599 nucleotides of DNA from Escherichia coli. GTDB lineage: Bacteria > Pseudomonadota > Gammaproteobacteria > Enterobacterales > Enterobacteriaceae. The DNA lies in assembly GCF_003334255.1 (NCBI RefSeq), contig NZ_QOWU01000212.1. The stretch is one strand, 5' to 3'. Positions 1 through 599 of this stretch are shown here, one piece after another. A program made the position numbers and the translations under genes. The notes beneath the pieces are model-generated. The model saw nothing but the letters and a program-made list of their open reading frames with translations. It was not told where the DNA came from and made no database searches. How positions within the stretch are numbered: the stretch's first letter is position 1; each line of letters begins with the position of its first letter.

Positions 1-76
1 AGTTATCGTGAGAGTAATTCATCGGCACGTTAAATCATATCAGGCGTAATACCACAACCCTTAAGTTAGCGCTTAT

Positions 77-89
77 GGGGCAAATCCCC
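77..89. repeat. Short hairpin GGGG-CAAAT-CCCC at the start of a pyrimidine-rich (+ strand) tract.
   Basis: GGGG (77-80), loop CAAAT (81-85), CCCC (86-89). The downstream sequence is CT-rich rather than T-rich, so it is not a canonical terminator on the + strand. Confidence 0.2.
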
Positions 90-160
90 CTCTCTCCGCC
101 ACTTTATCAATGACTTATCTCCCGACTTCCCGCCTTGCTTTTCCTAAACAGAACAATCGT

Positions 161-170
161 AGAATATTCT
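161..170. repeat. Perfect 10-bp palindrome AGAATATTCT; possible protein-binding site, or chance.
   Basis: Positions 161-170 equal their own reverse complement. The symmetry does not extend into the flanks. About 0.6 such palindromes are expected by chance in 600 bp. Confidence 0.2.
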
Positions 171-231
171 TGAAGGGTTAGATCGTCACTGTTTTCTGTT
201 CGATACTGTGACATTCAGCACTTGATTCGCT

Positions 232-435
232 ATGGATCTGACAGGAAGGTTTCGAGCGAAAATCTGCAGTTATTCAGTCGTTTTCTTATCGGTCACCATT
301 ATTCTTTTAGACATTGATCCTACAAAGCTGCCGCAAAGTTGGTGGTGGGAACTGAAGTTGCGTAGAGAAGGGGTCAATACCCGGAGGCAAACATGGGCTG
401 GCAAAAGTGTAGCGGTATTAGGCGCAGCTATTTAG
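232..435 (+). CDS. Questionable hypothetical small protein (67 aa); more likely a chance ORF than a gene.
   Basis: ATG at 232 to TAG at 433-435, taken from the ORF track. No Shine-Dalgarno sequence upstream (cagcacttgattcgctATG). Contains rare AGG, AGA, CGA and GGA codons. An ORF of this length is expected by chance in about 600 bp of roughly 45-48% GC DNA. The product has a hydrophobic stretch (SVVFLSVTIILLDI) and a WWW motif; I recognise no family. Confidence 0.12.
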   Translation: MDLTGRFRAKICSYSVVFLSVTIILLDIDPTKLPQSWWWELKLRREGVNTRRQTWAGKSVAVLGAAI

Positions 436-451
436 CCTAGTTATGTTTTAT
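417..451 (+). terminator. Weak candidate intrinsic terminator: a 7-bp stem with an 11-nt loop, then an interrupted T-rich run.
   Basis: attaggc (417-423) pairs with gcctagt (435-441), including one G-U pair; the loop is gcagctattta. It is followed by ttatgttttat (441-451). The stem is short and AT-containing and the U-tract is interrupted, so this is marginal. It overlaps the stop codon of the 232-435 ORF. Confidence 0.18.
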
Positions 452-464
452 GAAAACTTGATAT

Positions 465-494
465 CATATAAGTGTCTTACTTATTGGCTGTAAA
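465..494 (-). promoter_or_regulatory. Candidate sigma70-like promoter on the minus strand within the AT-rich tract; it would drive transcription leftward, antisense to the 3' end of the 232-435 ORF.
   Basis: On the minus strand: -35 TTTACA (complement of 489-494), an 18-bp spacer, then -10 TATATG (complement of 465-470). The -35 is a 5/6 match and the -10 a 4/6 match lacking the conserved final T. No comparably good forward-strand pair was found; TTGATA at 458-463 has no acceptable -10 at 16-18 bp. Confidence 0.15.
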
Positions 495-522
495 TAAGGT
501 TTTCTAAGGAATTGTTTCTTTA

Positions 523-599
523 GGTGATGCTGCCAACTTACTGATTTAGTGTATGATGGTGTTTTTGAGGTGCTCCAGTGGCTTCTGTTTCTATCAGCT
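523..599. other. Flank of a p15A-type (ColE1-family) plasmid replicon. In pACYC184 this stretch sits between the cat-side junction and the bom-like and ori sequences, so RNA II and the leading-strand fork would enter from the right on the minus strand.
   Basis: The stretch ggtgatgctgccaacttactgatttagtgtatgatggtgtttttgaggtgctccagtggcttctgtttctatcagct matches, from memory, the p15A backbone of pACYC184-family vectors, where it continues gtccctcctgttcagctactgacgggg toward the origin. This is recalled, not searched. Window sequence left of about 523 does not match the pACYC184 cat/Tn9 side. Confidence 0.6.

Follow-up and report, generated by a model that had tools for sequence, protein, structure and literature searches.

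Two overlapping reading frames at a serU-flank and IS630 junction in Escherichia coli very probably represent no gene

The interval 232-440 of a 599-nucleotide stretch of Escherichia coli DNA, called the window throughout, raises the question of whether either of two overlapping open reading frames (ORFs), or the region as a whole, represents a gene. The larger ORF, of 67 codons, is the longest in any of the six frames, and nested within its 3' part, in another frame, is a 15-codon ORF preceded by a GGAGG motif. The initial annotation found neither ORF convincing and proposed, should the region be expressed, a non-coding RNA or a very small protein, in what it assumed to be a plasmid setting.

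Searches of annotated plasmids and of complete E. coli genomes resolved the window into segments of separate derivation (Table 1), and on these alignments it reads as a mosaic in which a captured tRNA flank is combined with three insertion sequence (IS) ends. The portion at 81-379 is approximately 97% identical to the serU locus, homology to the native locus ends exactly at 379, and the segment at 102-379 is matched in 5405 of 5426 complete E. coli genomes. From 380 to 438 the window is 98.3% identical over 59 nt to the right end of multi-copy IS630 elements of Shigella sonnei pINV. Read in the transposase frame, 380-412 gives the last 10 codons, PGGKHGLAKV, and the stop, the same as the annotated S. 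sonnei transposase fragment, and the terminal inverted repeat of the element at about 416-433 is followed by TA at 433-434 and then by G. With homology to the element beginning at 380 and serU flank lying upstream, this segment is classed as an IS630 remnant and not as an IS copy. ISEc33, to which 380-438 is 93% identical, was the first assignment for this segment, and was dropped when a wider search returned the S. sonnei IS630. A flanking TA is expected of the IS630 family, which duplicates this dinucleotide (PMC2170065), and a preference for CTAG is attributed to Tenzen and Ohtsubo (1991, as cited in PMC2170065).

Table 1. Coordinates of the window segments and reading frames, and of related copies used for comparison.
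Feature	Position	Strand	Basis
IS421 end (IS4 family)	1-76	-	identical to annotated IS421 copies
tRNA-Ser(CGA) gene 3' end, serU type (T-arm and acceptor 3' strand)	77-101	+	alignment to K-12 serU 3' end
serU downstream DNA copy (serU-yodB spacer), non-coding, ends at TA 378-379	102-379	+	97.3% identity to K-12 L007 3022-3299
IS630 right-end remnant, 55 bp	380-434	+	98.3% over 59 nt to S. sonnei pINV elements
AT-rich upstream region of AraC-family regulator gene	435-522	+	contiguous with that CDS in L003, L001 and L019
IS1 left end	523-599	+	100% identity to annotated IS1B terminus, K-12 L006 24931-24855
67-codon ORF, very probably without biological standing	232-435	+	spans serU flank copy and IS630 remnant
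15-codon ORF, very probably without biological standing	393-440	+	start and GGAGG are IS630 transposase codons; stop beyond IS end
Second copy of tRNA-Ser fragment and serU flank	window 77-379; L003 4959-5299; L019 2274-2319 and 3537-3836
T-loop positions compared	L003 5000; L004 4000; K-12 L007 about 2995

The junction at 379/380, which divides the serU flank from the IS630 remnant, was considered as a mosaic junction specific to the window, a reading that was rejected because about 508 complete E. coli genomes carry 81-523 as one unbroken stretch (the best 30 listed are all 100% identical); on this evidence the junction is older. The break comes directly after TA, the IS630 target dinucleotide. 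The DNA past the IS630 end does not resume the serU flank, and simple insertion with internal deletion therefore does not explain the junction. Captured serU downstream DNA would have been joined to the last 55 bp of an IS630, presumably through a deletion or illegitimate recombination that removed most of the element.

The 67-codon frame, whose coordinates and length stand as they were initially annotated, runs from ATG 232 to TAG at 433-435 (MDLTG...LGAAI). Its codons 1-49 lie in the serU flank copy and its codons 50-67 in the IS630 remnant, out of the transposase frame, with a stop that overlaps the TA at the IS end; codons 50-67 and the stop thus derive from unrelated DNA across the 379/380 junction, and the 67-aa ORF is therefore a chimera. 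The frame would stay open across the junction by chance and be closed by the TAG that the IS630 end happens to provide. Its length is uninformative: when the window was shuffled 2000 times with dinucleotides preserved (mean 50 aa, sd 19), 17% of the shuffles held an ATG ORF of 67 aa or more. Could ATG 232 nonetheless open a real small membrane-associated peptide, of 50 aa at the native locus and 67 aa here, that is young, confined to Escherichia and fast-evolving? Among the features of the ORF itself, a hydrophobic stretch speaks for this reading. As the initial annotation had it, a ribosome-binding site is lacking, with no Shine-Dalgarno-like motif in the 25 nt upstream of ATG 232 (TGTGACATTCAGCACTTGATTCGCT), and rare codons are used: all but one of the six Arg codons belong to the set AGG, AGA, CGA and CGG, which E. 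coli uses rarely. No promoter-like site was found upstream of ATG 232 on the + strand. The hydrophobic segment pointed out in the same annotation is present as YSVVFLSVTIILL, with charged residues on both sides, but at about 13-14 residues it falls below the length of a typical membrane helix, which counts against a membrane peptide.

Comparison with relatives bears more directly on the peptide. In most E. coli serU loci that were inspected no stop interrupts the first 49-50 codons, which older GenBank records list as a 'hypothetical protein'; residues 13-36 are invariant among 15 aligned sequences, an invariance that only mirrors 97% DNA identity. The extent of the frame is not kept. From the same ATG, the native locus of K-12 gives 50 aa and L011 only 29 aa, the latter through a 15-bp deletion and a CAA-to-TAA (Gln-to-stop) change, and in L016 an IS66-family element abuts at about 364 and supplies a different tail. 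An IS1 lies inside the ORF after window base 266 in 21 complete genomes, including WCHEC020031, AMA1167 and YD786, with bases 257-266 repeated on either side of it (L004 4181-4200), which marks the frame as dispensable. This IS1 differs from the one at 523, and the short region has thus been struck by IS1 at least twice independently.

Among eight sequences there are 19 polymorphic sites in 232-378, of which 15 are non-synonymous, one is nonsense and only three are synonymous, counts whose power is limited by the number of sequences and by a DNA divergence of approximately 3%; L012 was left out of them, since its fragmented neighbouring genes suggest sequencing errors. Random mutation would be expected to yield 78% non-synonymous changes in this interval, and the polymorphisms are spread over the three codon positions as 7/5/7, with similar distributions in the other two frames. 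The ORF part is also the more variable one, at 19 of 147 sites against 4 of 130 in the preceding non-ORF flank (Fisher p = 0.004). By these measures the substitution pattern is unconstrained and the 232-378 frame would be under no purifying selection.

Nor do databases supply a family. A search of 5.8 billion protein clusters returned 14 matches, every one a call of 40-67 aa on the same Escherichia DNA. These calls begin at either of two starts and end in at least five unrelated C-termini, and the contigs inspected behind them are the mtfA-serU-yodB/zinT locus. Pfam and NCBIfam gave no match, and the best PHROG match had E = 0.075. In none of the 70 RefSeq records listed does an annotated CDS lie beneath the match, and the MG1655 annotation, although it covers validated micro-proteins and goes down to the 14-aa YmgK, leaves the serU-yodB spacer empty; the prokaryotic pipeline PGAP likewise leaves the frame uncalled. 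A literature search on serU and yodB found nothing about the spacer. Among the outcomes that the initial annotation named as telling against a coding region are a lack of homologues with a conserved reading frame and frameshifts or stops in related plasmids. The comparisons bear this out: calls are confined to the same Escherichia DNA, and related sequences have stops, deletions and IS insertions within the frame. A length beyond chance, a frame extent that is kept, a synonymous excess or third-position bias, an initiation signal at ATG 232 and wider homologues are the marks by which a small-protein gene was to be recognised, and the 67-aa ORF shows none of them. A young membrane-associated peptide at this site is, in our judgement, very unlikely, and the doubt that the initial annotation cast on both ORFs is fully upheld by chance length, broken frames and the lack of conserved-frame homologues.

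A second possibility is that the region acts as RNA, for example as a small RNA of the serU downstream spacer that is either independent or derived from the 3' trailer. At the native locus the segment follows serU immediately and in the same orientation, which makes read-through transcripts plausible, and 102-231 is unusually conserved in E. coli; but it is 232-379, the part under study, that is the more variable. Rfam 15 returned nothing for either strand, even with E allowed up to 1. Folding was predicted for each strand of 232-440 and for 102-379, and in every case the structure was less stable than in shuffled controls (z +0.96, +1.46 and +1.32), and a terminator scan found no terminator-like site. 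In addition, neither the window nor its prophage-borne relatives retain the tRNA promoter or the 5' portion of the tRNA. A functional RNA here is highly improbable, and the fallback to a non-coding RNA in the initial annotation finds no backing in the Rfam search or in the positive fold z-scores.

The near invariance of the 130 bp that follow serU is an observation in its own right, as the next 147 bp carry not only the greater number of variable sites but also a 15-bp deletion. Constraint from tRNA 3' processing or termination, a role as integrase attB flank, or recombination history could each account for it.

The 15-codon ORF owes its appeal to its start. The GGAGG at 383-387, the ATG at 393 that follows after 5 nt and the stop at 438-440 are all present as first annotated, and the product is MGWQKCSGIRRSYLA, a 15-aa peptide too short for homology searches. 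A GGAGG-N4-9-ATG arrangement is expected by chance 0.07 times per window; the one seen here is present because it was inherited from the IS630 transposase coding sequence, in whose frame GGAGG is part of GGA-GGC (Gly-Gly) and the ATG falls within caT-GGg (His-Gly). In ISEc33 (L002) and in the S. sonnei IS630 (L020) the frame equivalent to that of 393 meets no stop within the element and continues into the following DNA, and the length of 15 codons is accordingly set by flanking DNA, which places a stop just past the IS630 end. The idea of a very small protein, the other fallback of the initial annotation, fares poorly once this ORF is seen to sit in an IS630 end remnant with its stop supplied from outside. 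On paper GGAGG-N5-ATG is a strong initiation signal, and occasional translation of the 15 codons may occur if the region is transcribed.

On plasmid pCE1537-B (L002 3014-3700), RefSeq lists a 228-aa 'hypothetical protein' that starts at the ISEc33 ATG equivalent to window 393 and continues into a truncated downstream gene. The call is probably an annotation artefact. It does illustrate that the right end of an IS630-family element offers an outward-facing Shine-Dalgarno motif and an ATG in an open frame.

The least probable of the alternatives, that this motif is a functional outward-facing start giving a 15-aa peptide here and fusions elsewhere, can point to conservation of the motif in IS630 and ISEc33, to a frame that meets no stop before the IS end in any of the three copies compared and to the pCE1537-B call, but a pipeline start call is no evidence, and the motif falls on the transposase codons for Pro-Gly-Gly-Lys-His-Gly. 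Between 380 and 412 the window differs from ISEc33 at three places, two of them synonymous for the transposase, which is enough to explain the conservation, and the peptide differs between copies (MGWQ... vs MVRQ...). The GGAGG and ATG would be conserved by way of transposase codons and not as the start of a peptide.

It is thus very probable that 232-440 contains no gene, and that both ORFs arose by accident where a captured tRNA-gene flank meets an IS630 scar. With the segments identified, the junction located, the frame broken in relatives, substitutions unconstrained and homologues absent, we infer that 232-440 is not translated. A slim chance may be granted to a broader proposition, in which the conserved outward Shine-Dalgarno motif and ATG at the IS630/ISEc33 right end, once inserted upstream of a gene and with read-through from the transposase gene, could create translational fusions or re-start truncated genes. 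A separate and weaker possibility is a young micro-protein, restricted to Escherichia, from the 50 codons open downstream of serU. Even if the outward start were real, the 15-codon ORF would be an idle example of it.

The setting of the window also differs from the one first supposed. Matches to 81-523 are overwhelmingly chromosomal (6719 chromosomal places versus 79 on plasmids) and come from E. coli, which argues against the plasmid context assumed in the initial annotation. In three chromosomes inspected, this stretch is flanked on one side by a GIY-YIG gene at a prophage end (with pinE and tail-fibre genes) and on the other by the AraC-family gene, and paoD is nearby in two of the three. 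The AraC-family CDS begins about 160 bp beyond the homologue of 435-522 in L003, L001 and L019; in the window the IS1 separates it from 435-522. The chromosome of E. coli G1/2 matches window 1-523 at 99.8% identity with a single gap, and its PGAP annotation places no gene between IS421 and the AraC-family gene. The IS1 junction at 523 was found in no record of the collections searched, and IS1 at this position is the only part special to the window.

The tRNA fragment and the serU flank travel together. About 508 E. coli genomes have, away from serU and adjoining a prophage end (pinE, GIY-YIG gene), a second copy of a 3' fragment of tRNA-Ser(CGA) with 278 bp of serU flank, and this second copy is found as well on three 'plasmid' records with phage tail genes. 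The e14 and CP4-6 regions of K-12 were searched for the 81-379 segment, which is absent there; the K-12 copy is the one at serU. The window retains the 3' 25 nt of tRNA-Ser, compared with about 65 nt, from the anticodon stem onward, in L003, a relative that lacks IS421; that the L003 fragment begins in the anticodon stem resembles an att core, and the second copy looks like host DNA taken up by imprecise excision of an element integrated at serU. ARAGORN found no complete tRNA gene in the window, and thus no complete cloverleaf of a tRNA-Ser gene. The T-loop of the fragment varies: L003 has GGGGTTCAAATCCCC, native serU has GGGGGTTCAAATCCCC and L004 has GGGGGGCAAATCCCC, to which L019 adds one G; given these differences between copies, the prophage-borne tRNA copy would appear to be decaying, as is expected of a non-functional fragment.

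The outer segments of the window are IS ends, and both the IS421 end and the IS1 end are identical to annotated copies up to the terminus. The IS421 transposase start codon lies at window 22-20 and reads leftwards out of the window (the annotated CDS start matches window 22), and the terminal inverted repeat, closing with AACCCTTAAGTTAGCGCTTAT, finishes at 76. Both ends of IS421 are seen at the same site in G1/2, bordered on either side by a 13-bp target duplication, GGGGGCAAATCCC, and window 77-88 represents one copy of this duplication with one G fewer than in G1/2. The insertion point is in the T-arm of the tRNA fragment (window 71-88; L019 2305-2325 and 3531-3549), and other IS421 copies are bordered by similar sequence of the GGG...CCC type, which suggests that IS421 has a target preference for which the tRNA T-arm would be a natural target. 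Target preferences of this kind have been reported for some IS4-family elements.

On the right, window 523 coincides with an annotated IS1B element boundary in K-12, and the IS1 left end carries the terminal inverted repeat GGTGATGCTGCCAACTTACTGAT; the window stops inside this IS1. The single sigma-70-like promoter match in the window (530-557, + strand, CTGCCA-16-TATGAT) falls within the left end of IS1 and is directed into the element, where the IS1 insA promoter lies. The 3' end of the window was also considered as a p15A/pACYC origin and rejected as such, since alignment to annotated IS1 copies shows the shared sequence to be an IS1 end present in pACYC184.

For annotation, the consequence is that the window should not add a candidate small protein or non-coding RNA to any list, and its importance extends little beyond housekeeping. 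It does provide a clean example of how junctions between IS remnants and captured DNA yield plausible ORFs, and even a ribosome-binding site that consists of transposase glycine codons. The context is corrected as well, to mainly chromosomal, prophage-adjacent E. coli DNA in place of a plasmid gene.

Three known systems are instructive for comparison. With the native serU locus, window 77-379 shares the tRNA 3' end and the next 278 bp at 97% identity, but it is a second copy located elsewhere, which the inspected chromosomes have next to a prophage end close to paoD, and it lacks the 5' part of the tRNA, and so is not a tRNA gene; in the window it is additionally cut by IS421. With the S. sonnei IS630, a member of the IS630/Tc1/mariner family, the remnant has in common the same last ten transposase codons and the same inverted repeat, closing with GCGCAGCTATT, followed by TA and then G. 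It differs in that only about 55 bp are left, with neither the left end nor the transposase body, and the remnant therefore cannot transpose, and in that its left breakpoint at 379/380 falls inside the element and not at an IS end. The closest parallel to the 67-aa ORF is found among the spurious 'hypothetical protein' ORFs that arise across mobile-element junctions. Nothing sets it apart from these, and it shares with them its short length, its lack of a ribosome-binding site and of a family, its variable end and the differing treatment it receives from gene callers.
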